Shown here one piece after another: positions 1,644 through 41,039 of a DNA stretch of 64,000 nucleotides. The DNA comes from Actinomycetes bacterium (GTDB taxonomy: Bacteria; Actinomycetota; JAHEXW01). The translations under genes and the position numbers were made by a program. Below the pieces are notes generated by a model, which searched no databases, was not told where the DNA came from, and worked only from the letters and a program-made list of their open reading frames with translations. The stretch is from contig JAHEXW010000003.1 of assembly GCA_023251915.1 (NCBI GenBank), positions 11,033 through 75,032 on the forward strand, in the 5' to 3' direction. Each line of letters opens with the position of its first letter. Position 1 is the stretch's first letter.

Positions 1644-3587
1644 TTGGCGACGCAAGCGGTTATTTGGTTGATTCCGGTTGTGCCGGCGGTCGCGTTCATC
1701 GCGCTGCTGGCTTTGGGACGCGTTCGCCGCGCCGCCGCGCCTTACATCGGCCTGACAGCCGCCGTCTTATCATTGGTCGGTGCCATCTGGGCGGTTGTCG
1801 CCGTTGGTCGCGCCGGGACGATTAATTTTGACTTCATCTGGCTGACCGTCGGTAATGTGCCGCTCAAGATCGGCATGTATATAGATCCCCTGGCCGCCGT
1901 TATGCTGGTCGTCGTGACCACGGTCAGTCTGCTCGTGCAGATCTACAGCATCGGGTACATGAAGGGCGAGAAACGCTTGTCCTGGTATTACGCGGCCGTG
2001 TCCTTGTTCACCGCCTCCATGCTCAGTCTGGTGATCGCCAACAACTTCCTCCAGCTGTACATCTCCTGGGAGCTCGTCGGCCTTTGTTCGTACCTCTTGA
2101 TCGGTTTCTGGTACGAGAAGAAGAGCGCCTCGTCGGCCGCCATGAAGGCCTTTATCATCACCCGTATCGGCGACGTGGGCTTCTTCCTGGGTCTGGCGCT
2201 CTTGTTCGTTAACACCCACACCTTCGACTTTTCCGCCGTCCGCCAGATTGTCGCGGCCGGCTCACTCGGCGCCGGCACCCTGACCGCCATCGCGCTCTTG
2301 TTCTTCGCGGGCGCGGCCGGCAAGAGTGCCCAGTTCCCGTTGCACGTCTGGTTGCCTGACGCGATGGAAGGCCCGACCCCGGTCTCGGCCTTGATCCACG
2401 CCGCCACCATGGTCGCCGCCGGCGTCTATCTGGTCGCCCGTTCCTTCTTCATCTTCGAGGCGGCCCACCCCGCTGCCCTTCAGGTCGTGGCAGGCATCGG
2501 TGCCTTCACCGCCATCTTGGCCGCGGTCATCGCGGTGACCATGACCGACATCAAGAAAGTCTTGGCCTACTCGACCATCAGTCAACTCGGGTTCATGATG
2601 GCGGCCTTGGGTGTCGGCGGCTATACCGCCGCCATCTTCCACCTGACGACACACGCCTTCTTCAAGGCGCTCTTGTTTCTGGGGGCCGGGAGCGTCATCC
2701 ACGGCGCCGGCACCCAGAACATCTATGAGATGGGCGGACTCTTGAAGAAGATGAAAGTGACCGGCTGGACCTTCCTCATAGCCACCTTGAGCATCGCGGG
2801 CATCGTGCCGCTCTCCGGTTTTTGGAGCAAAGACGAGATCTTGACGGAAGCTGCCAAATCCGGCAACTACATCATCCTAGGCGTCCTCCTGGTCACGGCC
2901 TTCCTGACCGCCTTCTACATGTTCCGCCTCTACTTCGTCGTCTTCACCGGCCCGGTGCGTGACGAACACGCGCACGAGTCGCCGGCCGTCATGACGTATC
3001 CCTTGCTCATCCTGGCCGTCCCGGCGGCCCTCTTGGGACTGGCCGGCTCGCCCTTACTCGGCAACTGGTTTACGAAGTTCATCGCACTCCCCGGCGCCGA
3101 ACACATCGCCGCCGCGCCTGATTATCTGATGATGGGTCTGTCGACCGCGGCCGCTCTGGCAGGGATCGGGTTGGCCTGGGTGATGTATAAACGTAACCTT
3201 TCGGAAGAGCGGTTTGGCCGGACATTGTTCTATTTCTTCAATATCGCCAAAAGGCGTTTCTTTCTCGACGAACTTTATCAGTTCCTGATCGTGCGACCGA
3301 TCATGCGTCTGGCTGCCGCCTCGGCCTGGTTCGACATTAAGGTTCTGGACGGGGCCGTAAACTCTGTCGGACCCTTGGCGGTGCATGGAGGTTATCGCGC
3401 GGCCCAGTTTGATTCGGTTGTGATTAACAACGTTTATGATTCCGGCATCAATATCATCAAAACGATTGGCGAGGCGACCCGGCGGCGGGTCAACACCGGA
3501 TTGATACCTAGGTATCTAGCCTATATCCTGGCCGGCTTCGTTGTGCTGGCCGTAATCGTTTACGTTCTGTTCGTTATGGTCAAATAG
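1644..3587 (+). CDS. nuoL: NADH-quinone oxidoreductase subunit L with extended amphipathic helix (TTG start)
   Basis: 647 aa; WELVGLCSYLLIGFW, KAFIITRIGD, GKSAQFPLHVWLPDAMEGPTPVSALIHAATMV, HAFFKALLFL; extra 26-aa FD..V(D/N) unit at 3330-3407. Confidence 0.95.
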   Translation: MATQAVIWLIPVVPAVAFIALLALGRVRRAAAPYIGLTAAVLSLVGAIWAVVAVGRAGTINFDFIWLTVGNVPLKIGMYIDPLAAVMLVVVTTVSLLVQIYSIGYMKGEKRLSWYYAAVSLFTASMLSLVIANNFLQLYISWELVGLCSYLLIGFWYEKKSASSAAMKAFIITRIGDVGFFLGLALLFVNTHTFDFSAVRQIVAAGSLGAGTLTAIALLFFAGAAGKSAQFPLHVWLPDAMEGPTPVSALIHAATMVAAGVYLVARSFFIFEAAHPAALQVVAGIGAFTAILAAVIAVTMTDIKKVLAYSTISQLGFMMAALGVGGYTAAIFHLTTHAFFKALLFLGAGSVIHGAGTQNIYEMGGLLKKMKVTGWTFLIATLSIAGIVPLSGFWSKDEILTEAAKSGNYIILGVLLVTAFLTAFYMFRLYFVVFTGPVRDEHAHESPAVMTYPLLILAVPAALLGLAGSPLLGNWFTKFIALPGAEHIAAAPDYLMMGLSTAAALAGIGLAWVMYKRNLSEERFGRTLFYFFNIAKRRFFLDELYQFLIVRPIMRLAAASAWFDIKVLDGAVNSVGPLAVHGGYRAAQFDSVVINNVYDSGINIIKTIGEATRRRVNTGLIPRYLAYILAGFVVLAVIVYVLFVMVK

Positions 3588-21631: not shown

Positions 21632-23944
21632 ATGGCGAGAGAGCGAATCCGTTTATTAATCAAAGGTGTCGTTCAAGGGGTCGGATTCCGGCCCTTTGTT
21701 TATCAGCTGGCGCAACGGCACGATGTGTCCGGATTCGTCCTCAATACCGGTGAGGGCGTTGTTGTCGAGGCTGAAGGTGAACTTAAAGACCTGGAGCGTT
21801 TCCGCCACGCGCTGAAGCCGGAAGCTCCGCCCCGCGCCGTCATCGAGTCGATCAGCCCGCGCATCATGCACGTCCAGGGCGACGCCGGGTTCGTTATTCA
21901 ACCTAGTCTGGCCCAACCCGACGAATTTCAACTAGTTTCTCCGGACATCGCTACCTGCGACGATTGCGCGGCGGAAGTCTTCGATCCAGCCGACCGACGT
22001 TGGCGCTACCCCTTTACAAACTGCACTAATTGCGGGCCCCGGTTCACCATTATCGAAGACATGCCTTACGACCGGCCCAAAACCACCATGAATAAATTTG
22101 AGATGTGTTCGGATTGCCAGCGGGAGTATGATGATCCGAATAACCGGCGCTTTCATGCCCAACCAAACGCTTGTCCGGTGTGTGGGCCGAGGCTGTCGTT
22201 TGTTGGCAGACGACCCCAGGACCAGACGACCGCAGACCAGCAAACCGTAAACCTTGAGGGCGAAGAGGCCCTAGCGGCGGCGGTCGAGATGTTGCAAGCC
22301 GGGCAGATCGTCGCCATCAAGGGACTGGGTGGTTTCCAGCTGGCCTGTGACGCGGGTAACGAAGACGCCGTAAAACGACTGCGCGACAAGAAGCATCGCT
22401 ATGGCAAGCCGCTGGCGGTGATGACGGAGACGATCAAGGAGGCCGCGGAGATATGTTTTATCAATGCCGCGGAACAAGAGCTGCTAGAGTCTCCGGAACG
22501 TCCGATCGTTCTGCTGCGCCGCCGCCCTAAAGACGTTGTCGCGCCGAACATCGCACCAGGCAACAACTATATCGGCATTATGCTTCCCTACACGCCGCTG
22601 CATCAACTACTGCTGCGTGACACAGGGCTGATATTGGTCATGACAAGCGGAAATATAAGCGAGGAGCCGATTGCCGCCGAAAACACCGAGGGATTGCGAC
22701 GTCTCGAACATGTCGCCGACGGCTGGCTGCTGCACGACCGAGATATCTACTCCCGCTATGACGATCCGGTTGTCCGTATTGTCGAGGGACACCGCGTTAT
22801 GATCCGGCGCGCCCGTGGCTACGCACCCTACCCGGTTCACCTGACTTTTAAGGCCAAGAAAGAGGTTTTAGCCGTCGGCGGTGAACTCAAAAGCACGTTT
22901 TGTCTTCTTAAGGAAGGCTACGGGTTCGTGTCACAGCATATTGGCGACATGGAAAATGTGGAAACGTTTGAGCATTTCGAACGGACGCTTGAGCTTTACA
23001 AGCGACTGTTCCGAATTAATCCTGAGGTCGTCGCCTGTGACATGCATCCGGATTACTTCTCGTCCAAATTCGCGCGCGATCTCAAGGCGCCCCGTTTGGT
23101 TGAGGTCCAGCATCACCACGCGCACATCGTCAGCTGCGCGGTTGAGAACGGCTGGCGCGACCAGGTAATCGGTGTTGCTTTTGACGGTACCGGTTACGGC
23201 ACCGACGGCACGATCTGGGGCGGGGAATTTCTGCTGGCGGACTGGGCCGGTTTCGAACGGGCCGCTCATCTTAAGCAGATTCGGTTACCCGGTGGCGAGG
23301 CAGCGGTTGAGAAGCCCTACCGGACCGCGCTCTCCTATCTGTTGAGCACATATGGTGACGCCTACGCCGATCTGGGGTTGGACTTCTTGAGCCGGCTTGA
23401 TCCGGTGGAAACAGAGATTCTGGAACGTCAGGTGGCGACCGGCTTGTTGTCCCCCTTAACGTCCAGCGCCGGTCGGTTATTTGACGCCGTCTCTTCGCTC
23501 ATCGGGGTGCGGGACGCTATCGAGTTCGAGGGGCAAGCGGCAATCGAACTGGAGATGCAGTCAGACGAGGCCGAGCACGGCCGTTATGAGTTTGACTATA
23601 TAGCGGCGCCGGGCCAACCGACGGTGATCAACACCGACCCGCTGATCAAGGGCATTGTTAATGATTTGCTGAAATGCGTGCCAGCCGCCGTTATCGGTGC
23701 GAAATTCCAGGCCACGGTCGCGGACATAATAGTCGCGACCTGCGGGCGCCTAAGGGAAGCGACTGGCGTGCGAACAGTCGCCTTGTCAGGCGGTGTTTTT
23801 CAAAACGCGACTTTATACGCGAGAGTTATCAAGGGTCTAAAGAAGCAGGATTTTCGCTTACTGTTGCACAAGGAACTGCCCGTTAACGACGGCGGCATTT
23901 CTCTAGGGCAGGCTGTTGTCGCGCACACCCTCGCGGCCACGTAA
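21632..23944 (+). CDS. hypF: Carbamoyltransferase HypF
   Basis: Acylphosphatase domain GVVQGVGFRPFV, zinc fingers CDDC..CTNC / CSDC..CPVC, IKGLGGFQLAC, QHHHAH, DGTGYG, PVNDGG. Confidence 0.97.
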   Translation: MARERIRLLIKGVVQGVGFRPFVYQLAQRHDVSGFVLNTGEGVVVEAEGELKDLERFRHALKPEAPPRAVIESISPRIMHVQGDAGFVIQPSLAQPDEFQLVSPDIATCDDCAAEVFDPADRRWRYPFTNCTNCGPRFTIIEDMPYDRPKTTMNKFEMCSDCQREYDDPNNRRFHAQPNACPVCGPRLSFVGRRPQDQTTADQQTVNLEGEEALAAAVEMLQAGQIVAIKGLGGFQLACDAGNEDAVKRLRDKKHRYGKPLAVMTETIKEAAEICFINAAEQELLESPERPIVLLRRRPKDVVAPNIAPGNNYIGIMLPYTPLHQLLLRDTGLILVMTSGNISEEPIAAENTEGLRRLEHVADGWLLHDRDIYSRYDDPVVRIVEGHRVMIRRARGYAPYPVHLTFKAKKEVLAVGGELKSTFCLLKEGYGFVSQHIGDMENVETFEHFERTLELYKRLFRINPEVVACDMHPDYFSSKFARDLKAPRLVEVQHHHAHIVSCAVENGWRDQVIGVAFDGTGYGTDGTIWGGEFLLADWAGFERAAHLKQIRLPGGEAAVEKPYRTALSYLLSTYGDAYADLGLDFLSRLDPVETEILERQVATGLLSPLTSSAGRLFDAVSSLIGVRDAIEFEGQAAIELEMQSDEAEHGRYEFDYIAAPGQPTVINTDPLIKGIVNDLLKCVPAAVIGAKFQATVADIIVATCGRLREATGVRTVALSGGVFQNATLYARVIKGLKKQDFRLLLHKELPVNDGGISLGQAVVAHTLAAT

Positions 23945-33140: not shown

Positions 33141-34775
33141 ATGCCAATAGCCAAGTTTAGGAGTCCGTTTGTTTCCGCGATTTGCGGACTGGCCCTCTCG
33201 GCGCTGATGATCGGGTCTCTGCCCGCCGTCGCCATCGCGAACGGTGACAACCCGGGACAAGAGACAGGCCGGATTCGTGCCGCCGTCAGCGCTGCCACCA
33301 CGATCTACGCCGACGCGGTAAACGGCAGTGATTCGACCGGCGACGGCACGCAAGGCAATCCTTATAAAAGCTTGAGCATGGCGGCAGGGAACGCTTATGA
33401 CGGAGATACGATCCAGCTGCTGCCGGGCACCTACAGCCCGTCAACGACGAATGAGAGCTTCTACATCGGAATGGCGGCGGTAACCCTAAGGGGTTCCGGG
33501 AGCGACAGCACGATTCTGGATGGTGAGAACGACTGGACCCAGGACAACATCAACTCGTATACGAGAATGCTTAATTACAGCAACGATAGTGGGACAACGG
33601 CGTCTATTGAGGACATGACGATCCGGGGCGCCGGTGAGGCGGCCGTGGACATTTACCGCGGCAATCTGACCATTAACAATTGCGTCTTCGCCAAAAACTA
33701 CCATGACGACAGCGGTGCGGCCATCCTGATGCGCTATGGCAACGGAACGGAAAAAATATCCATAACGAATTGTGTCTTTACTGAGAACAACTGTGACGAG
33801 AGCGGCGGGGCCATCTGTCTTTACAATCCTGGCGACACGGAGATAAGTCAGAATACGTTTTTGGAGAACGAGGCGGGCCAGGGCGCCGCGATCTTTTCGG
33901 AGGGCTCCGGTGGCAGCGCCGTTGACATCCACTGCAACAAGATCCAGGATTCAACCACTCAATATAACGGCGCGGTTTACCTGGATAACACGTCGGATTC
34001 CACGGCGGTTAAATTCTACAACAACCTGGTAACCGGGAACATTTCGGCGGGCAACTCCACGTCCGCCTTATTCTTGTCCAACGACGTCTCGACCAGCGTC
34101 TATAACAACACCTTCTCCGCCAATGCCGGGGGTAATACACTCTACGACTGGGGCGAGGTCAAGAACGCGTTGGTCTACAACAATATCTTCTGGGGCGACG
34201 CGCCCGTCGATACGGAATTGGTCGCAGGTGACTATTACTACAACGACATTCAAAATATGAGCGCGGCCGGCTTTGATACCAACATGCACGTTGATCCGCT
34301 GTTCGTGGACGCGGCCAACGGCGATTATCATCTGCAAGCCGGCAGTCCGTGCCGCGGCGCCGGCGTTTCCGATTCGACCTACCCGGCGCCCGATACCGAT
34401 CTCGACGGAGTCGGCCGACCTACCGGCACCGGTCACGTGTCGATGGGCGCATACGAGTTCGTCACAATCCAGTTCGACCCGCTTCCCGGTCTGAGCGCGC
34501 CTATCAATTTGGACGAAGGACAAGTGGTTTGGCAGAACCCGTTTATCATCAAGGTCTTCCCGACCAGCAATGCCGGCATCCAGCGCGTTGAGTTTTACGT
34601 TGACGACGTCTTGATTGGCACGGTTACCGAGCCGGACGCGTCCGGTGTCTATTCTTGCGCTTGGGATACGGCGAAGTATCATTCGCTGGTGCGCGTCGTG
34701 GCTTATGACAACCAGGGCGGTAAGGTGACGCTGACCCGCAACACGACAGTCGCGTTGCCCTATACCGGACGCTAG
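33141..34775 (+). CDS. Secreted parallel beta-helix protein with C-terminal Ig-like domain and terminal LPYTG
   Basis: Signal peptide; IYADAVNGSDSTGDGT.GNPYKSL (DUF1565-like); N..GGAI repeats; DPLFVD...DYHL..GSPC..AG; RVEFYVD; ends LPYTGR*. Confidence 0.85.
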   Translation: MPIAKFRSPFVSAICGLALSALMIGSLPAVAIANGDNPGQETGRIRAAVSAATTIYADAVNGSDSTGDGTQGNPYKSLSMAAGNAYDGDTIQLLPGTYSPSTTNESFYIGMAAVTLRGSGSDSTILDGENDWTQDNINSYTRMLNYSNDSGTTASIEDMTIRGAGEAAVDIYRGNLTINNCVFAKNYHDDSGAAILMRYGNGTEKISITNCVFTENNCDESGGAICLYNPGDTEISQNTFLENEAGQGAAIFSEGSGGSAVDIHCNKIQDSTTQYNGAVYLDNTSDSTAVKFYNNLVTGNISAGNSTSALFLSNDVSTSVYNNTFSANAGGNTLYDWGEVKNALVYNNIFWGDAPVDTELVAGDYYYNDIQNMSAAGFDTNMHVDPLFVDAANGDYHLQAGSPCRGAGVSDSTYPAPDTDLDGVGRPTGTGHVSMGAYEFVTIQFDPLPGLSAPINLDEGQVVWQNPFIIKVFPTSNAGIQRVEFYVDDVLIGTVTEPDASGVYSCAWDTAKYHSLVRVVAYDNQGGKVTLTRNTTVALPYTGR

Positions 34776-35914
34776 CGCTTTAGGAATAGATTGGCGATCG
34801 GTCCCCGCGTGACGCGCAAAGCTCGTTGCGGACACAGCTCGATGCAGCAGAAACAACGGATACATTTGTCGTAGTCAAAGACGGGCTTGCCGTCGACTAC
34901 TTGAACGGCGCCGACGGGACACGGACGCGGGCAGTGTCCGCAGCCGGTGCAGAGGTCAGGCAACAGTTCCGGGCGTTCTTGCCGTAAAAACCAACCGCTG
35001 ACCGTTTGGGCGACCGATGGAACATGGAACCGCTTGGTCTGGCCCGCCATCTCCTTGACTACGTCAGGCAATGGTTCGCCGACGATCTCGATCTGCTCAA
35101 TATCGGTGACACCCAAACCGCGCCGACCGGCGTTAACTAAAATCGGCACAGTCTTAGGGTCGACACCCAAGATGAGCGCCGCGACCGTATCCAGCGCGAC
35201 GCCGTCGCGACTGGCTAAGATTAGCCCGGGCCAGACCCTATCCTGCTCGCGCCACCGGCCGCCCAATCCGACGACTGCATCCATGACGCACAGCCGGGGC
35301 CTCAGAACACTGTAGATGTCCACAATTAGCGCGGCGAATTTCTCGTGCGTTGTTCCGAGCGCGTGATAAGCGCTTTTTGTACCGCCCGGTACAGTGCCGA
35401 AAAGGTTCTTAACCGCCCCTGTTGTTTTGGTCAGGATATGAGTCTTAAGTTTCGGAGCATCGATTATCAGATCTGCCTCGACGGCCGGGCGCGCCAGAAA
35501 CGCCTCCGGTAAAACCTCAGCGGATGGAATCGGCACAGCCACAGGCTCCAGGCCATCGAAGCTGACAACGCAGGCGCCTTGACGAGCGCAAGCGTCGCGG
35601 ATGCCGGTCGTCTGCAGCGCTCGCTCCGTCGCCCCGTGCCAGCGCAGTCCGGAGGCGTCTCCTACAGTGACGACCGCATTACGTTCGGCCGCCATTTTGA
35701 TGAGCGCTTCGGTAACCCGGTAATCGGTCGTATTGCCAGACTCTCCGTCGCTGGTCTCAACAAGGTTGGGCTTAACGAGCACTTTCTCGCCGACGTCGAT
35801 TTCATCCAAAATCGCCAAGCCGCCGCACATAAACACCGCCTGCCGCACAGCGGCTTCGACGTCCGAATAATCAATCGGGGTGCGAACGATGGCGACCTTT
35901 GCTTTAGCCATCAT
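34772..35914 (-). CDS. DUF362 Fe-S protein fused to a 2x[4Fe-4S] ferredoxin
   Basis: KVLVKPN, PKLKTH, AVKNLFG, DGVALD; CTGCGHCPRPCP and CIRCFCCIELCP. Confidence 0.9.
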   Translation of the reverse strand: MMAKAKVAIVRTPIDYSDVEAAVRQAVFMCGGLAILDEIDVGEKVLVKPNLVETSDGESGNTTDYRVTEALIKMAAERNAVVTVGDASGLRWHGATERALQTTGIRDACARQGACVVSFDGLEPVAVPIPSAEVLPEAFLARPAVEADLIIDAPKLKTHILTKTTGAVKNLFGTVPGGTKSAYHALGTTHEKFAALIVDIYSVLRPRLCVMDAVVGLGGRWREQDRVWPGLILASRDGVALDTVAALILGVDPKTVPILVNAGRRGLGVTDIEQIEIVGEPLPDVVKEMAGQTKRFHVPSVAQTVSGWFLRQERPELLPDLCTGCGHCPRPCPVGAVQVVDGKPVFDYDKCIRCFCCIELCPQRALRVTRGPIANLFLKR

Positions 35915-36668
35915 CAGCCTTCTTTGGGTCAGTTTCATGGGTCGCAGTAACGGCGGCTCGCAACGCGTCGAGCAGAATATGGCCGGCGGCATGCTGCATG
36001 TTGTCGTTGAAATCAGGGTCAAAAGTCATACTGGCCCGGCAAGGATAGCTGCCCCAGTATTTGGCTGCCCACCATTCGAGCTTGTCATCGAGCGCTTTAC
36101 CGACCAAATTACGGGCGACAAAATAAGTGTCACCGCAGGGCGCCGAGCGGATGACATCGACAGCGGTAATTACGTTATCAATGACCGTGATCTTGATCTC
36201 CGGCCGGCCGATCTTCAAGTCACGCATCATCGCCGTTATGGCGGGCCGGGCGGAATCTTCAACGAGTGAGCAGAATGGTTTAGGAAAGGCGGTCTCCAGT
36301 CCGGCTGCGGCGCAGCGTCTAGCGACCTCGCCGCGGGACCAAGGGGTTGTCCAGGCGGGATCCTCGCGCGGCACGACGATCGCCCGGCCGCCGGCCGCCG
36401 CGACGGCCGCCGGTAATTCCAACATTATCTCTTCGTGGATGTTGATGGCGATCAAAACATCGTGCGGCAGAAGAGAGTCAGGCAAAAAAGCCGCGGGGTT
36501 GTCTAAGTATTCCGGCAGAACCGCGGGGTGAGTGACAATCTGCACGATATGGTCGCGCCGGTGCGCCGCGAACCCGGCAGCATACGCATCGTTGAAAAAG
36601 AGATCAAAGGGCCCGGCCGGCAGGGCCGAATCGCCATCGCTCATAACCAGGACAAGACGGGTCGGCAT
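35904..36668 (-). CDS. DUF166-family protein
   Basis: LPEYLDNP, IAINIH, PKPFCSL, IGRPE, V.VIRSAPCG.T, YPCRASM..D; family recognised from memory. Confidence 0.75.
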   Translation of the reverse strand: MPTRLVLVMSDGDSALPAGPFDLFFNDAYAAGFAAHRRDHIVQIVTHPAVLPEYLDNPAAFLPDSLLPHDVLIAINIHEEIMLELPAAVAAAGGRAIVVPREDPAWTTPWSRGEVARRCAAAGLETAFPKPFCSLVEDSARPAITAMMRDLKIGRPEIKITVIDNVITAVDVIRSAPCGDTYFVARNLVGKALDDKLEWWAAKYWGSYPCRASMTFDPDFNDNMQHAAGHILLDALRAAVTATHETDPKKADDG

Positions 36669-36675
36669 GGTCGGT

Positions 36676-37581
36676 CTACACCAGGTAAAGGAGGTAATCG
36701 TAGGCGGTCAATGCGGCGCGCGCGCCGTCACCGGCGGCGATGATAATCTGTTTGTCAGGCTCGTCCGTGACGTCACCGGCAGCGAAGATGCCGGGACGGC
36801 TTGTTCGTCCGGAACGGTCGACGACTATTTCGCCGGTCGCATTCAGTTTGACCAAACCTTTGACAATGTCAGAGTTGGGCGTCAGCCCTATTTCGACAAA
36901 CACGCCGGTTACGGCGAGTCGTCGCGGCCGGCCGTTGACGTTAACGTCGATTGATTCAACCAGCTCGGTGCCGTCGATCCCGGTGACAGCAGTGTCTGTC
37001 AGGACCTCGACATTCTTATGATCATAGACCTTGTTTTCCAGAATCTCGTCGGCGGTTAGTTCCGGTCCCGCTTCTATCAAGTAGACCTTAGCGGCGATGT
37101 CTGCCAGCTGTAGAGCGGCTTCCGCCCCTGAGTTACCCCCGCCAACAACTGCCACGTCCGCGGCTGCGAACAAGGGCGCGTCGCAAGTGGCGCAATAGGT
37201 GATACCGCGGCCGCGAAACGTGTCTTCACCAGTAACGCCCAGCTGGCGGGGCGATTTGCCCGTTGCGATAATAACCGTGTGTGCCTGATGTTTACGTCCG
37301 TCCACGTCTTCAACGGCCCAGCCGTCCTGGCCGTCCGCGATCGATACAGCAGTTTTATAAACCATGTCCACCGCGAATTTCTTCAGATGTTCCTCGAACT
37401 TGTCGACCAGATCGCTGCCTTTGATGTAGTCAAAACCCAGATAGTTTTCAACTCCGCCGCTCCAAAGAGTCTGGCCGCCGACATCGGTCGTCAGCATTTT
37501 GACGCTCAACTGTTTGCGCGCGCAATACACCGCGGCGGTCATGCCCGCCGGTCCCGCGCCCAATATGATTACATCATTCAT
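36676..37581 (-). CDS. trxB: Thioredoxin reductase-like flavoprotein, AhpF/Cp34 type
   Basis: GAGPAG, GGQ..., ENYLG, IIATG, CATCD, GGGNSG, IFAAGD; IEAGPELTAD replaces the HRR NADPH motif. Confidence 0.9.
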   Translation of the reverse strand: MNDVIILGAGPAGMTAAVYCARKQLSVKMLTTDVGGQTLWSGGVENYLGFDYIKGSDLVDKFEEHLKKFAVDMVYKTAVSIADGQDGWAVEDVDGRKHQAHTVIIATGKSPRQLGVTGEDTFRGRGITYCATCDAPLFAAADVAVVGGGNSGAEAALQLADIAAKVYLIEAGPELTADEILENKVYDHKNVEVLTDTAVTGIDGTELVESIDVNVNGRPRRLAVTGVFVEIGLTPNSDIVKGLVKLNATGEIVVDRSGRTSRPGIFAAGDVTDEPDKQIIIAAGDGARAALTAYDYLLYLV

Positions 37582-37600
37582 CTAGCCTACCTTGTGTTAT

Positions 37601-37840
37601 TTATTTCAGAGCGGCCGTGATCTTGTCGCGATCGAAGCCCACTATGATGGTGCCGGCTATGTCGAGCACGGGCACAGTAAGTTGACTCGATTTCTTAATC
37701 ATCTCATGAAGTGCGTCGCGGTCGGCGGTAACGTCATGGTCTGTAAAAGCGACGCCCTGCTCGGTGAGCCAATCCTTGGCTTGGTGGCAGTGGGGTCAGG
37801 TCGGCGTGGAGTAAACGGTCACTTGCTTTGCTGCGGTCAT
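37601..37840 (-). CDS. Selenocysteine-containing glutaredoxin/NrdH-like redoxin (UPHC); missing from the ORF track
   Basis: MTAAKQVTVYSTPT-UGA-PHCHQAKDWLTEQGVAFTDHDVTADRDALHEMIKKSSQLTVPVLDIAGTIIVGFDRDKITAALK*; TGA at 37798-37796; AGGAGG RBS; frame open for 64 codons after TGA. Confidence 0.88.
37767..37781 (-). promoter_or_regulatory. Putative bacterial SECIS hairpin
   Basis: AGCCAA-GGA-TTGGCT; apical loop starts with G, ~21 nt 3' of the UGA. Confidence 0.6.
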
Positions 37841-37855
37841 CTCGTATACCTCCTC

Positions 37856-38593
37856 TTATCGTCCCAATAGGTTAAATGCCGTGTAAATCAAGCCGGTGCA
37901 GAACAGACCGGACAGCATTCCGATAAAATGCCACTTGATGTCATTGGGCGAGTTCTTGTCATTTAACCCCAGGATGAAAGGCAGATAGAATAACAAGAAG
38001 CCGGCCGCCGCCGCATAGGTAAAGGGAACAAACACGTCTAGCGACCCCAGCGACGGCATATTGAAACCGATTAAGGCCGGCACCACGGTGGTCGCGCCCA
38101 GGGCGGTGACCAGGTACCAGCTCGGCCGGGCATTTAGTAAGAGCGCGCCGATTGCCAGGCCTTCCAAGAGGAATATCAATGCGAGCAAAAGCGCTGGACC
38201 AATCGTAACGTTCAAGATTCCGCTCGCAACTTCATTGCTTGACGTAAGCGCGAAACCCAGATTGAACAGGCCGAGCGCAACAGCGAGAATGACGGAACGC
38301 CGGCGTTCTCCTACGACGAAAATCATAACCAGAGGGCTCACAAAGATGGCGAGCAATGCGACGACCGTAAAGACCCAGGGATTGGCAAAGATACCGCCGG
38401 CGAAAGTGTTGGCTTGGAACAACTCTGCCATCCGTCCAAGGACTCCCGAAACCATTGAAATGATAAAGAACAACACGGTGCCTGCGGCAAAGGCGTTTAT
38501 GACCAGCACGATACGTTTGGGAAGGTCTTGGGCGAGATAGACGGCCAATCCTATGAAAATGGCGATGACTGTCAACTGGGCAACTGGGTTCAT
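37856..38593 (-). CDS. Divergent ZIP/GufA-like membrane transporter
   Basis: ~8 TM; AFAAGTVLF, LLEGLAIGA, AAAGFLLF; canonical His/Asn metal ligands not evident; TATGCT 6 nt before ATG. Confidence 0.55.
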   Translation of the reverse strand: MNPVAQLTVIAIFIGLAVYLAQDLPKRIVLVINAFAAGTVLFFIISMVSGVLGRMAELFQANTFAGGIFANPWVFTVVALLAIFVSPLVMIFVVGERRRSVILAVALGLFNLGFALTSSNEVASGILNVTIGPALLLALIFLLEGLAIGALLLNARPSWYLVTALGATTVVPALIGFNMPSLGSLDVFVPFTYAAAAGFLLFYLPFILGLNDKNSPNDIKWHFIGMLSGLFCTGLIYTAFNLLGR

Positions 38594-38688
38594 AGACACA
38601 GCATAATCTCGCCAAGTTCATAGCGTCAAGGCGGCCGCTCGTGCTAAAATCTTCGTTACACGTGTTACTAAAAGGAGGGCTTGCGCCA

Positions 38689-38934
38689 ATGTGTCTTGGA
38701 GTGCCAGGTAAGGTCATCGCGGTTAAAGACGACTGGATTGCCGAAGTAGATATTAGCGGCGTGGTTATTGACGTCGGTCTGCAGTTCACCCCCGAAGCCA
38801 AGGTGGGCGACTATGTTTTGGTCCACACCGGCTACGCGATGCATGTCATGGACGAGGCCGAGGCCATGGAAACCCTAAAGCTGCTTGAGGAAATGGGTGC
38901 GGCGGCGGAATTGCCTGATGGTCAAATATCTTAG
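38689..38934 (+). CDS. hypC: Hydrogenase maturation chaperone HypC
   Basis: MCLGVPGKV, VGDYVLVHTGYAM; AGGAGG RBS. Confidence 0.96.
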   Translation: MCLGVPGKVIAVKDDWIAEVDISGVVIDVGLQFTPEAKVGDYVLVHTGYAMHVMDEAEAMETLKLLEEMGAAAELPDGQIS

Positions 38935-40024
38935 CGAGTTTCGCAACCCCGAACTTGCCGCCGGAATTCTCAGGCGCCTAGAGAAGGTTTCCACCCGCCC
39001 GGTTAGCTTCATGGAAGTGTGCGGTACGCATACCGTCTCCATCAGCAAGAACGGCCTCCGGCAGGCAGTTCCCGACAACATTCGCTTACTCTCCGGTCCC
39101 GGTTGCCCGGTCTGCGTGACAGCCAACGCCGATATTGACAGGATGATTGCGATAGCCGCGCAACCCGACGTTATTTTGACGACCTTCGGGGACATGATCA
39201 AGGTTCCCGGATCCTACTCATCACTCGCTAAAGAGAAGGCGGCGGGGTCGGACATCCGAATCGTCTATTCAACAAGAGACGCCGTGAAGCTGGCCCAAGA
39301 CAACCCCGACAAGCGCGTTGTCTTCTATGGTGTCGGTTTCGAGACCACGACGCCGACAGTGGCCATGTCTATACTCGACGCGCGGCAGAAGAACGTTGCC
39401 AACTACAGTGTTCTCTCAGTCCATAAGGTTGTTCCGCCGGCTATGAAGGCGCTCCTTGATTTGGGCGAGGTTACTCTGGACGGGTTCATTTGCCCGGGTC
39501 ACGTGTCTGTTGTAATCGGAACGCGGCCTTACGAGTTTATTCCCAAAGACTATGGGATCCCTTGTGTTGTCACCGGTTTTGAGCCTCTCGATATTCTGGA
39601 AGGTGTATTAATGCTGGTCGAACAGGTCGAACGGGGCGAAGCCAAGGTGGAAAACGCATACAAGCGGTTGGTTACAACCGACGGCAATAAGATCGCCATG
39701 GAGACGATCCACAGGGTGTTTGAACCTGGAGACGCCGACTGGCGAGGGATCGGCGTTATTCCGGGCAGCGGCCTGAATATCCGGCAAGAATTTGCCGACT
39801 TCGACGCGGCCCGCTTGTTCGCCGGGGTCGAGGTGCCGCCCGTCAAAGAGCACAAAGGCTGCCGCTGCGGTGAAGTGCTGCGCGGCGTTATCTATCCGTA
39901 CGATTGCGGTCTCTTCGGCAAGGCCTGCGTTCCCGAACATCCCATCGGACCGTGTATGGTGTCGGGAGAGGGCAGCTGTGCCGCCTACTATCGCTACGAC
40001 GAGAAACCAAGGACTGGTGCTTGA
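38918..40024 (+). CDS. hypD: Hydrogenase maturation protein HypD
   Basis: MEVCGTHT, GPGCPVCV, GFETT, PGHVS, CRCGEVLRG, PIGPCMVSGEGSCAAYY. Confidence 0.97.
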   Translation: MVKYLSEFRNPELAAGILRRLEKVSTRPVSFMEVCGTHTVSISKNGLRQAVPDNIRLLSGPGCPVCVTANADIDRMIAIAAQPDVILTTFGDMIKVPGSYSSLAKEKAAGSDIRIVYSTRDAVKLAQDNPDKRVVFYGVGFETTTPTVAMSILDARQKNVANYSVLSVHKVVPPAMKALLDLGEVTLDGFICPGHVSVVIGTRPYEFIPKDYGIPCVVTGFEPLDILEGVLMLVEQVERGEAKVENAYKRLVTTDGNKIAMETIHRVFEPGDADWRGIGVIPGSGLNIRQEFADFDAARLFAGVEVPPVKEHKGCRCGEVLRGVIYPYDCGLFGKACVPEHPIGPCMVSGEGSCAAYYRYDEKPRTGA

Positions 40025-40025
40025 T

Positions 40026-41039
40026 ATGGCTGACGATAGGGTTCTGCTGGCGCACGGAAGCGGCGGGAAGGTCTCGCATCGTTTGATTGACGAGGTCTTC
40101 ATGAAGGTCTTCACCGATCCCGTTCTAAACCGCCAGGATGATGCGGCGGTTGTGCCGGGCGGCGAACAGCTGGCCTTCACGACCGACTCCTACGTCGTCA
40201 AGCCCATATTCTTTCCCGGCGGCGACATCGGGAAGCTGGCGGTTTGCGGCACAGTGAACGATCTATCAATGAGCGGCGCCGTTCCGAAATACATCAGCGC
40301 GGCTTTTGTGATCGAAGAAGGCTTCGCCTTTGCGGAACTATATAGAGTGGTCGAATCGATGGCGGCCGCGGCCGATGAAGCCGGCGTGGCCATTGTCACC
40401 GGTGACACGAAAGTCGTCGAACGCGGGAGCGCCGACCAGATATTCATAAATACCGCGGGCGTCGGTATCATGCGACCCGGCGCAGACATCGCTGCCGCCA
40501 ACCTTCGTCCCGGCGACGCGGTGATTATCTCCGGCAGTATTGGTGACCACGGAGTCGCGGTTATGTCGACTCGAGAAGGGTTGTCATTCCGGACGGCGAT
40601 CGAGAGTGATTGCGCCCCGTTGAACGGCTTAATCGCCGCGGTGATCGACAGCGGTGCGGACGTACATGCTCTGCGTGATCCCACCAGAGGCGGTTTGGCC
40701 AGCACGCTGAATGAGTTCGCGGCCCAGTCCGGCGTTGTCGTCGCCATCGATGAAACGCAGGTGTTGGTTGCCGACCAGGTCGCTGGCGCGTGTGAGATGC
40801 TGGGACTCGACCCGTACCAGGTCGCCAACGAAGGCAAGGTTGTTGCGGTCGTCGCGGCGGCGGACGCTGACAAAGCCGTGGCCGCCATGCGCACCTCGCC
40901 ATATGGTCGGGAGGCGCGAATCATCGGTATTGTGGCCGAGGCGCCTGACGGCAAGCCTCGTGTCACGTTGAAAACAACCGTCGGCACAACGAGAATTCTG
41001 GACATGCTGGTCGGAGAACAGCTGCCGCGCATCTGTTAG
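40026..41039 (+). CDS. hypE: Hydrogenase maturation protein HypE
   Basis: AHGSGG, FTTDSYVV, GGDIGKLAVCGTVND, TGDTKVV, RDPTRGG, ANEG, C-terminal PRIC. Confidence 0.97.
   Translation: MADDRVLLAHGSGGKVSHRLIDEVFMKVFTDPVLNRQDDAAVVPGGEQLAFTTDSYVVKPIFFPGGDIGKLAVCGTVNDLSMSGAVPKYISAAFVIEEGFAFAELYRVVESMAAAADEAGVAIVTGDTKVVERGSADQIFINTAGVGIMRPGADIAAANLRPGDAVIISGSIGDHGVAVMSTREGLSFRTAIESDCAPLNGLIAAVIDSGADVHALRDPTRGGLASTLNEFAAQSGVVVAIDETQVLVADQVAGACEMLGLDPYQVANEGKVVAVVAAADADKAVAAMRTSPYGREARIIGIVAEAPDGKPRVTLKTTVGTTRILDMLVGEQLPRIC

Follow-up and report, generated by a model that had tools for sequence, protein, structure and literature searches.

A selenocysteine glutaredoxin operon with DUF166 and DUF362 genes in uncultured Actinomycetota, and the class II ribonucleotide reductase gene found within it in sister lineages

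Results

Gene organization of the locus

A minus-strand operon was analyzed in a 64-kb stretch of DNA from an uncultured groundwater Actinomycetes bacterium (64,000 nt; assembly GCA_023251915.1, contig JAHEXW010000003.1, positions 11,033 to 75,032), hereafter the window, in which all coordinates without a locus name are given. The operon encodes a ZIP-like membrane protein, a selenocysteine (Sec) glutaredoxin (Grx), a thioredoxin reductase (TrxR)-like flavoprotein, a DUF166 protein and a DUF362-ferredoxin, and it belongs to a small clade of uncultured anaerobic Actinomycetota. In sister lineages, nrdJ, the gene of the class II (adenosylcobalamin) ribonucleotide reductase (RNR), lies between the reductase and DUF166 genes. 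The features are listed below.

38600..38629, minus strand: sigma-70-type promoter, TTGACG-18 nt-TATGCT, from a consensus scan
37856..38593, minus strand: ZIP-like membrane protein, 245 aa, open reading frame (ORF)
37601..37840, minus strand: Sec-glutaredoxin, 79 aa, read-through ORF with an in-frame TGA at 37798-37796
37766..37782, minus strand: selenocysteine insertion sequence (SECIS)-like hairpin AAGCCAA-GGA-UUGGCU(C), predicted fold, 13 nt downstream of the UGA
36676..37581, minus strand: TrxR-like flavoprotein, 301 aa, ORF
36669..36675, minus strand: 7-nt junction where nrdJ (about 1.75 kb) sits in sister lineages, from synteny
35904..36668, minus strand: DUF166 protein, 254 aa, ORF
34772..35914 (start 35914 or 35911), minus strand: DUF362-ferredoxin, 380 aa, ORF

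The five ORFs were found on the minus strand as the initial annotation had described them, with gaps of 15, 19 and 7 nt followed by an overlap of 8-11 nt between the DUF166 and DUF362 genes, and this spacing suggests that the five genes are co-transcribed. The arrangement was seen again in at least nine further lineages and is therefore not due to chance. The concern, voiced in the initial annotation itself, that the linkage might be confined to this genome is thereby ruled out.

Sister lineages carry nrdJ between the reductase and DUF166 genes

The neighbourhoods of DUF166 homologues, from 80% down to 44% identity, were retrieved by exact-protein look-ups. Loci L082-L084 (DUF166 80% identical) and L173/L174 (75%) share the five genes with the window, and their reductase and DUF166 genes are likewise 7 nt apart; the stop-7 nt-ATG junction is identical in the window and L082, and the 7-nt gap of L173 was read from gene coordinates. 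In at least six related lineages, an nrdJ gene was found between the reductase and DUF166 genes, as seen in L085 (DUF166 66% identical), L087/L088 (58%), L089/L090 (57%), L092 (44%) and L091, the last of which was located via its NrdJ and has a DUF166 gene truncated by the contig end. In L092 (7121-7984), a PAS/GGDEF gene is also inserted between nrdJ and the DUF166 gene, and the DUF362 gene lies 2 kb further on. The extra protein, of about 580 aa, scored 699 bits on the NrdJ_Z model TIGR02504 (cutoff 400). At the C terminus, NrdJ of this clade has a Cys-x4-Cys tail (DCRSHYCPA here, CPTPLC in another clade); a Cys-rich C-terminal domain of 150-220 aa, which occurs in 70% of NrdJs (PMC5704485), is missing. 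As judged from synteny, the ancestral order appears to be ZIP-like, Sec-Grx, NADH-type TrxR, class II NrdJ, DUF166 and DUF362-ferredoxin.

The DUF166 tree nests the window and L082, with 100/100 support, among nrdJ-bearing members, and in the sister row L001 a 3' fragment of nrdJ lies immediately upstream of the DUF166 gene. Searching 5.8 billion proteins with the NrdJ of L085 returned orthologues only from nrdJ-bearing lineages, the next matches being at most 66% identical. No orthologous NrdJ above 66% identity from nrdJ-less lineages was found in this search, which argues that the gene was lost and not moved, incomplete assemblies being possible. The pattern is most simply explained by nrdJ having been lost once, without a scar, in the common ancestor of the lineages of the window, L082 and L173.

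The initial annotation had placed the DUF166 and DUF362 proteins in the position of a missing AhpC. This was not borne out, since sister lineages have nrdJ there and it was deleted here once; because nrdJ sits between the reductase and DUF166 genes in these lineages, the slot ascribed to AhpC was, by synteny, ancestrally that of NrdJ.

The comparison of the window with L082, both nrdJ-less, gave ratios of nonsynonymous to synonymous substitution rates (dN/dS) of 0.03-0.07 for all five genes, at a dS of at least 1, which is saturated. All five genes are under strong purifying selection after the nrdJ loss and have long been kept functional without a cis-encoded NrdJ; the operon genes must therefore have an NrdJ-independent role too. 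Between the same two loci, the operon proteins are 80-91% identical, with DUF166 evolving fastest (80%), and the flanking Lon, HypC, HypD and HypE are 95-99% identical. The faster evolution of the operon may reflect adaptation or relaxation following the loss of nrdJ.

Inteins were also observed. The nrdJ gene of L089/L090 (5014-8004) holds one, with Intein_splicing and LAGLIDADG domains in the 996-aa product. For L072 (2266-6507, a 1413-aa ORF) and L035, split tblastn matches and ORF length point to an nrdJ intein.

Selenocysteine glutaredoxin

The active site of the Grx is T-U-P-H-C (UPHC), with the UGA at 37796-37798, and the ORF is open only when TGA is read as Sec. The protein matched PF00462 (E = 1.5e-17) and passed the YruB/Cp9 model TIGR02196 with 90.2 bits (cutoff 88.55, Sec scored as Cys). 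The TGA was found at the same codon in 11/11 clade loci scanned, with the protein conserved on both sides of it (53% to 87%). The apical loop of the downstream hairpin carries GG, and the stem-loop is identical in five lineages, synonymous positions included; it fits a bacterial SECIS element. An in-frame UGA, a SECIS stem-loop and flanking coding conservation, by which selenoprotein genes are recognized, were thus all present, and the conserved TGA together with the invariant hairpin substantiates the Sec-Grx of the initial annotation. UxxC glutaredoxins are a known selenoprotein type according to a table in PMC9312934. None of selA, selB, selC, selD and tRNA-Sec was found in the examined part of the window.

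The Geothermincolales homologues have Cys (CPYC) at the Sec position. Such CPYC homologues, 50-55% identical to the Sec-Grx, were observed in Geothermincolales-type loci (L012:349-564, L020:601-819, L021, L024 and L076) at 5-8 kb upstream of nrdJ-DUF166, with intervening genes on both strands, so that their linkage is doubtful.

NADH-type reductase

The GAGPAG (FAD), CATC (redox centre) and GGGNSG motifs of the reductase are conserved throughout the clade. The motif alignment showed a conserved Glu (LIE) in place of the HRR of NADPH-type enzymes in the whole clade, which sets the clade reductases apart from the canonical HRR TrxB at other loci; both IEAGPELTAD and CATC are present in the window protein. 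Pyr_redox_2 was matched with E = 8.5e-48. The scores fell below the cutoffs of both the TrxB model TIGR01292 (301 bits, cutoff 343) and the AhpF model TIGR03140 (322 bits, cutoff 503), the latter being covered only at profile positions 213-513 of 515, and the protein lacks the N-terminal double thioredoxin-fold domain of AhpF. The closest solved structures are the C-terminal halves of AhpF (1hyu/1fl2). Taken by motif and profile, the reductase appears to be of the NADH type and AhpF/Cp34-like. The initial annotation, which had called it AhpF-like and without HRR, agrees with the clade-wide Glu and with AhpF as the best PDB relative. Other actinobacterial clades also encode a TrxR and a Grx, 5-7 kb upstream of their DUF166 genes; these were considered as orthologues and rejected, as they are an HRR-type TrxB and a CPYC Grx.

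The comparison with the Clostridium pasteurianum Cp34/Cp9 system, made in the initial annotation, proved apt, with a Grx above the YruB cutoff and an NADH-type, AhpF-like reductase. In that organism, Cp34/Cp9/Cp20 consist of an NADH-dependent TrxR-like protein, a YruB Grx homologue and a peroxiredoxin (Reynolds, Meyer & Poole 2002, as cited in PMC3720550), and the redoxin gene is flanked by those of the reductase and the peroxiredoxin, with cp20 adjacent (Figure 6 legend, same paper). The window likewise pairs a YruB-family redoxin with a low-Mr TrxR-like flavoprotein without HRR. It differs in having no peroxiredoxin gene, in Sec (UPHC) instead of Cys, in the order Grx-TrxR, and in that nrdJ takes the client slot in relatives. 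The reported absence of AhpC from the operon is borne out: among the Pfam matches of the clade loci that were annotated, no AhpC/peroxiredoxin family was found in the operon or its flanks (8-10 kb).

DUF166 protein: conserved residues and fold

The DUF166 protein matched PF02593 with 157.7 bits (cutoff 24.4). The PFCSL, SAPCG and YPCRASM motifs pointed out in the initial annotation were all found in it, and their Cys are invariant columns: in two alignments, three Cys (PFC, SAPCG, YPC) and two His are invariant family-wide, the invariant residues of the window protein being C133, C178, C210, H78 and H226. An N-terminal four-Cys motif, CxxCx3CxxC, was scored in a motif census; it is absent from the window and every clade locus scored and present in 57/71 other loci.

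The AlphaFold model (mean predicted local distance difference test score, pLDDT, 94.6) gave no fold match in the PDB (best template modelling (TM) score 0.32), nor was there a sequence match. The SAPCGD region showed a weak hhalign match to one IscU (E = 0.011, probability 3.9%, 41 columns); HMMER found no NifU_N match in 41 DUF166 members, and Foldseek found no IscU fold match. No B12-binding domain or fold was detected in DUF166. The window protein scored 48.8 bits on the DfsP model NF041372 (cutoff 200). DUF166 is listed as a selenoprotein family in PMC1976440 and PMC9312934; among the 90 loci examined here, Sec-containing DUF166 candidates were rejected, the in-frame stops being natural termini only.

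Genomic contexts of DUF166

A survey with one genome per species gave 571 confirmed DUF166 loci, and neighbourhoods were counted in the best-scoring 80. These 80 come from Actinomycetota, Bacillota, Armatimonadota and Archaea, and the description of DUF166 in the initial annotation as mostly known from archaea is accordingly wrong. On the same strand upstream of DUF166, nrdJ was found in about 19/80 loci. In three actinobacterial clades, namely one Geothermincolales-like, one Oleimmundimicrobium-like, and the window's clade with L001, it adjoins DUF166 (mostly <300 nt, up to 1.5 kb); in three Bathyarchaeia loci it lies 1.5-3.5 kb upstream. The nrdJ-DUF166 order persists at identities as low as 36-47%, where the flanks have otherwise changed. 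A 932-aa ORF in L026 that would fuse NrdJ to DUF166 was dismissed as a spurious alternative-frame ORF, the real genes being separate.

About 28/80 loci are carbon monoxide dehydrogenase/acetyl-CoA synthase (CODH/ACS) clusters with AcsC/AcsD, ACS, CooC, RACo and AcsE, and at two loci DUF166 is fused to the catalytic subunit of CODH. In these fusions, L053:7875-10571 (a Bacillota metagenome-assembled genome) and L080:689-2719 (Candidatus Hakubella), DUF166 is N-terminal to CODH (Prismane/CooS); the L053 protein has 898 aa and a full-length CODH domain. A further gene order was observed in Bathyarchaeia, where an AsnC regulator, a two-domain thioredoxin-fold (PDO-like) protein, DUF166, HypA and a P-loop (CooC/HypB-like) ATPase are encoded at L079:6713-9764 and also in L071, L072, L063, L066 and L078.

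The only published DUF166 genetics come from a preprint (bioRxiv 10.1101/2024.03.05.583561) on Methanococcus maripaludis, in which CODH/ACS-dependent autotrophy requires MMP_RS05055, a protein that is also co-fit with CooC2 and CODH/ACS. This protein belongs to the same Pfam family, PF02593, as the window protein. Its gene adjoins cooC2 and CODH/ACS, whereas the window DUF166 represents an nrdJ-associated branch that lacks the four-Cys motif and is coupled to a DUF362-ferredoxin. Several DUF166 homologues bear the JGI name 'thymidylate synthase', which was rejected as they have no similarity to solved or curated enzymes; in the same preprint the M. maripaludis mutant is defective only in autotrophy, which also counts against this name.

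Pairing of DUF166 with a DUF362-ferredoxin

The DUF362 protein matched PF04015 with 157.8 bits (cutoff 24), and also Fer4_10 and Fer4. Its C-terminal 2x[4Fe-4S] domain has two CxxCxxCxxxCP motifs in the translation, which bears out the DUF362 protein with 2x[4Fe-4S] of the initial annotation. Solved structures match only the ferredoxin part; DUF362 itself is a member of the LarA clan (PMC11770544). Only in the window's clade is DUF166 followed by a DUF362-2x[4Fe-4S] gene, which usually overlaps it, and the four-Cys motif of DUF166 is missing exactly in this clade. This coincidence of loss and gain supports DUF166 and DUF362 working together. We infer that an Fe-S input module may have moved in trans, from the four-Cys motif of DUF166 to the DUF362 protein.

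ZIP-like membrane protein

The first gene of the operon encodes a 245-aa protein with 8 helices (AlphaFold model, pLDDT 84). In a Foldseek search of the PDB, the nine best matches were all BbZIP of Bordetella bronchiseptica (PDB 5TSA and others), with TM scores of 0.52-0.57, probability 1.0 and 19-20% identity, and the eight-helix fold is common to BbZIP and the modelled protein. In contrast to BbZIP, the window protein fails the Pfam Zip model and has no evident classical His ligands. No Pfam/NCBIfam match was obtained for it, Zip (PF02535) reached E = 3.3 in one homologue, and no sequence-level match to any solved ZIP was found. The family comprises only 18 protein clusters, and those with examined loci are all in this operon; some members are named ZupT by JGI. 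It has no invariant His, the only invariant positions being an Asn, a Glu and an ERRR run. The ZIP-like label thus stands at the level of the predicted fold and not at the level of sequence, and a classical His-containing metal site is apparently not retained. At L092, the most distant clade member, iscS and iscU (1687-3279) lie directly upstream of the ZIP-like gene.

Promoter region and flanking genes

The promoter stops 6 nt short of the ATG at 38593. The -35 box, the -10 box and this ATG are invariant or nearly so across six lineages whose proteins are only 46-85% identical. The ATG at 38593, being invariant, is the better candidate start of the ZIP-like gene than the GTG at 38599. The conservation of boxes and ATG supports a transcript that is probably leaderless, in line with the leaderless promoter regarded as probable in the initial annotation.

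An element GTAACACGTGTAACGAAGATTTTAGCAC with the 8-bp palindrome ACACGTGT was observed between hypC and the ZIP-like gene (38645-38680), about 15-45 nt upstream of the -35 box. It is nearly identical in four lineages and could serve the divergent hypCDE and redoxin promoters as an operator. The operon is bracketed by hypC-hypD-hypE (38689-41039) on one side and hypF (21632-23944) on the other, the latter about 13 kb past the DUF362 end in the window with many genes in between. The bracketing was also found in the clade members whose contigs extend far enough, and no other DUF166 clade has hyp genes nearby. On the plus strand, a gene for a 544-aa beta-helix protein (DUF1565/Pel9A-like and Big_7; 33141-34775) is convergent with the operon, with an end overlap of 4 nt; it is missing at the same position in L082, L085 and L173, indicating a lineage-specific insertion.

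Discussion

The reading that we favour, and hold as a whole with moderate confidence, is that the Sec-Grx and TrxR were the NADH-driven hydrogen donor of the NrdJ encoded in the ancestral operon, that nrdJ has since been deleted, and that DUF166 is a Cys/His redox or metal-cluster protein. NrdJ would be the ancestral client of the pair because its gene sits between the reductase and DUF166 genes in sister lineages. Electrons would pass from NADH to the FAD and CATC disulfide of the reductase, from there to the U-P-H-C selenenylsulfide of the Grx, and then to the C-terminal CX4C tail of NrdJ, which would be re-reduced after each turnover. Thioredoxin- and NrdH-type hydrogen-donor systems work by this logic of reductase, redoxin and RNR tail. 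As in the NrdH/TrxR donor systems (class Ib nrdHIEF, and NrdH with the class III NrdD3; Table 1 of PMC9176816), a small Grx-like redoxin would be encoded with an RNR bearing a C-terminal Cys-pair tail, and the expected path is the same; here, in contrast, the redoxin is not of the NrdH family, the RNR is a class II NrdJ, and a dedicated NADH-type reductase is in the operon. An RNR catalytic gene in the same unit, as RNR operons have, is absent from the window, where it was deleted, and present at the homologous position in L085 and L087-L092. A Cp9/NrdH-like redoxin reduces a class Ib RNR, and Cp9-type redoxins pair with the Cp34 reductase (PMC3720550). As nrdJ was deleted in the window, the redoxin pair must act there on other clients, which would be another RNR, a peroxiredoxin encoded elsewhere, or DUF166 itself.

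For DUF166, the most likely role is that of a Cys/His-based redox or metal-cluster protein which services demanding metallo- or radical enzymes, namely NrdJ in Actinomycetota and CODH/ACS elsewhere. Its occurrence beside NrdJ speaks against a role confined to CODH/ACS or to Ni, and the DUF166-CODH fusions argue against a purely corrinoid-specific one. In the window's clade DUF166, being without its own four-Cys (probable Fe-S or Zn) motif, would take electrons in trans from the [4Fe-4S] clusters of the translationally coupled DUF362 protein, which is probably their source. A precedent for an Fe-S protein in the RNR operon of a strict anaerobe is Methanosarcina barkeri, in which, as Wei et al. 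reportedly found in 2015, a ferredoxin:disulfide reductase and NrdH pass ferredoxin electrons to a class III RNR. DUF166 and the DUF362-ferredoxin could, by analogy, play such a role, although neither has detectable homology to the FTR-like reductase of M. barkeri. A broader proposal, to which we give little credence, is that DUF166 would be a redox-delivery or re-activation protein for the oxygen-sensitive radical and metallo-enzymes of strict anaerobes, in which its own four-Cys cluster, or DUF362 in trans, would feed ferredoxin-level electrons to NrdJ (via Sec-Grx or directly) and to CODH/ACS; it would then be the physiological reductant or activator of the anaerobic NrdJ, a function that is still open for many class II RNRs (PMC5704485).

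Several observations weigh against the favoured assignment. No RNR or nrdJ was found in the window by tblastn, so that the direct client is absent yet the genes persist. The Grx fails the NrdH-redoxin model TIGR02194 (44.3 bits, cutoff 85.75), and the only biochemically characterized YruB-type system reduces a peroxiredoxin. No relative of known function was detected for DUF166. In a reciprocal survey of 80 NrdJ loci from many phyla, no DUF166, YruB-type Grx or TrxR was found within 6 kb; the NrdJ-DUF166 link is lineage-restricted and could be one old inherited gene order. When sequencing runs were sought for RNA-seq coverage of the locus, matches were obtained only in three groundwater-metagenome DNA runs.

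Among the alternatives, a relay running from NAD(P)H through TrxR and Sec-Grx to DUF166 and DUF362, with DUF166 (alone or with DUF362) as terminal client, for instance in Fe-S assembly or repair or in S/Se handling, and NrdJ as a passenger, is possible and on balance unlikely. The trxR gene has been coupled to DUF166 by 7 nt since the nrdJ loss and all five genes are under purifying selection, a two-domain thioredoxin/glutaredoxin-fold protein is encoded next to or near DUF166 in 5 Bathyarchaeia loci, iscS-iscU directly precede the ZIP-like gene in L092, and DUF166 has a selenoprotein branch, DfsP, which is typical of redox-active Cys positions (PMC1976440). Yet the constant DUF166 neighbour across Actinomycetota is nrdJ and not Grx/TrxR, the upstream reductases of other clades are ordinary HRR-type TrxB 6-7 kb off, no redoxin is adjacent in the 28 CODH/ACS-type loci, and the three invariant Cys of DUF166 are far apart in sequence, more like metal ligands than a disulfide. 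With nrdJ holding the client position in relatives, we also find it hard to credit a role in peroxide defence, in which the pair would act as an NADH peroxiredoxin reductase of the Cp34/Cp9 type for a peroxiredoxin/AhpC encoded elsewhere and DUF166 and DUF362 would be passengers. The Grx reaches the YruB/Cp9 cutoff, the reductase is NADH/AhpF-like, and the characterized Cp34/Cp9 pair reduces a peroxiredoxin (PMC3720550, citing Reynolds 2002); however, no peroxiredoxin gene was found in the operon or within 8-10 kb in the annotated clade loci, whereas cp20 is adjacent in C. pasteurianum, and both the tight coupling and the four-Cys loss with DUF362 gain argue against passenger status.

Two further explanations centre on the metal-containing partners of DUF166. 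Both of its dominant contexts hold corrinoid enzymes (NrdJ, and AcsC/AcsD with RACo and AcsE), as would be expected if DUF166, fed by the DUF362-ferredoxin, reduced or loaded cob(II)alamin for NrdJ and the corrinoid Fe-S protein of CODH/ACS. Such corrinoid maintenance is nonetheless very improbable, as the fusion partner of DUF166 is CODH itself and not the corrinoid protein, the window lineage kept DUF166 despite the loss of nrdJ, DUF166 has no detected B12-binding domain or fold, and its immediate neighbours in Bathyarchaeia are HypA and a P-loop ATPase of the Ni-insertion type. The last-mentioned neighbours favour instead a role in metallocentre maturation, in which the ZIP-like importer, DUF166 and DUF362 would build or repair Ni/Fe-S centres (hydrogenase, CODH), Grx/TrxR would reduce thiols, for example in the HypD cascade, and the operon would functionally be part of the hyp cluster. 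The divergently adjacent hypC-hypD-hypE and the hypF a few kb past the other end (13 kb in the window), the adjacent CooC in several archaeal loci, the CODH fusions, the co-fitness of the M. maripaludis DUF166 with CooC2 and CODH/ACS (bioRxiv 10.1101/2024.03.05.583561) and the weak local resemblance of SAPCGD to IscU (hhalign E = 0.011) point the same way. This role is also highly doubtful, given that the neighbour found most constantly in Actinomycetota, NrdJ, contains neither a Ni nor an Fe-S centre, that hyp genes lie near DUF166 in one clade only, and that the IscU resemblance is not significant by HMMER or Foldseek.

Sec-Grx, NADH-type reductases and redoxin-RNR operons are already known kinds. 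The six-gene arrangement, the DUF166-NrdJ linkage, the pattern of four-Cys loss with DUF362-ferredoxin gain, and the retention of the operon despite the loss of nrdJ appear to be unreported; in the full-text literature on DUF166 (by name and by COG, Pfam and InterPro accessions), no retrieved passage mentions RNR. What the window itself shows is more limited, namely an operon remnant after nrdJ loss. DUF166 is widespread in bacteria and archaea and has so far been discussed only in the context of CODH/ACS. Whole actinobacterial clades with DUF166 directly behind a B12-dependent RNR indicate that it is not a CODH/ACS-specific factor, and NrdJ with its redoxin and reductase, with or without DUF166 and DUF362, would be a much simpler in vitro system in which to find its activity. 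DUF362 gains a first concrete partner, and the ancestral operon is relevant to identifying the reductant of class II RNRs in strict anaerobes.

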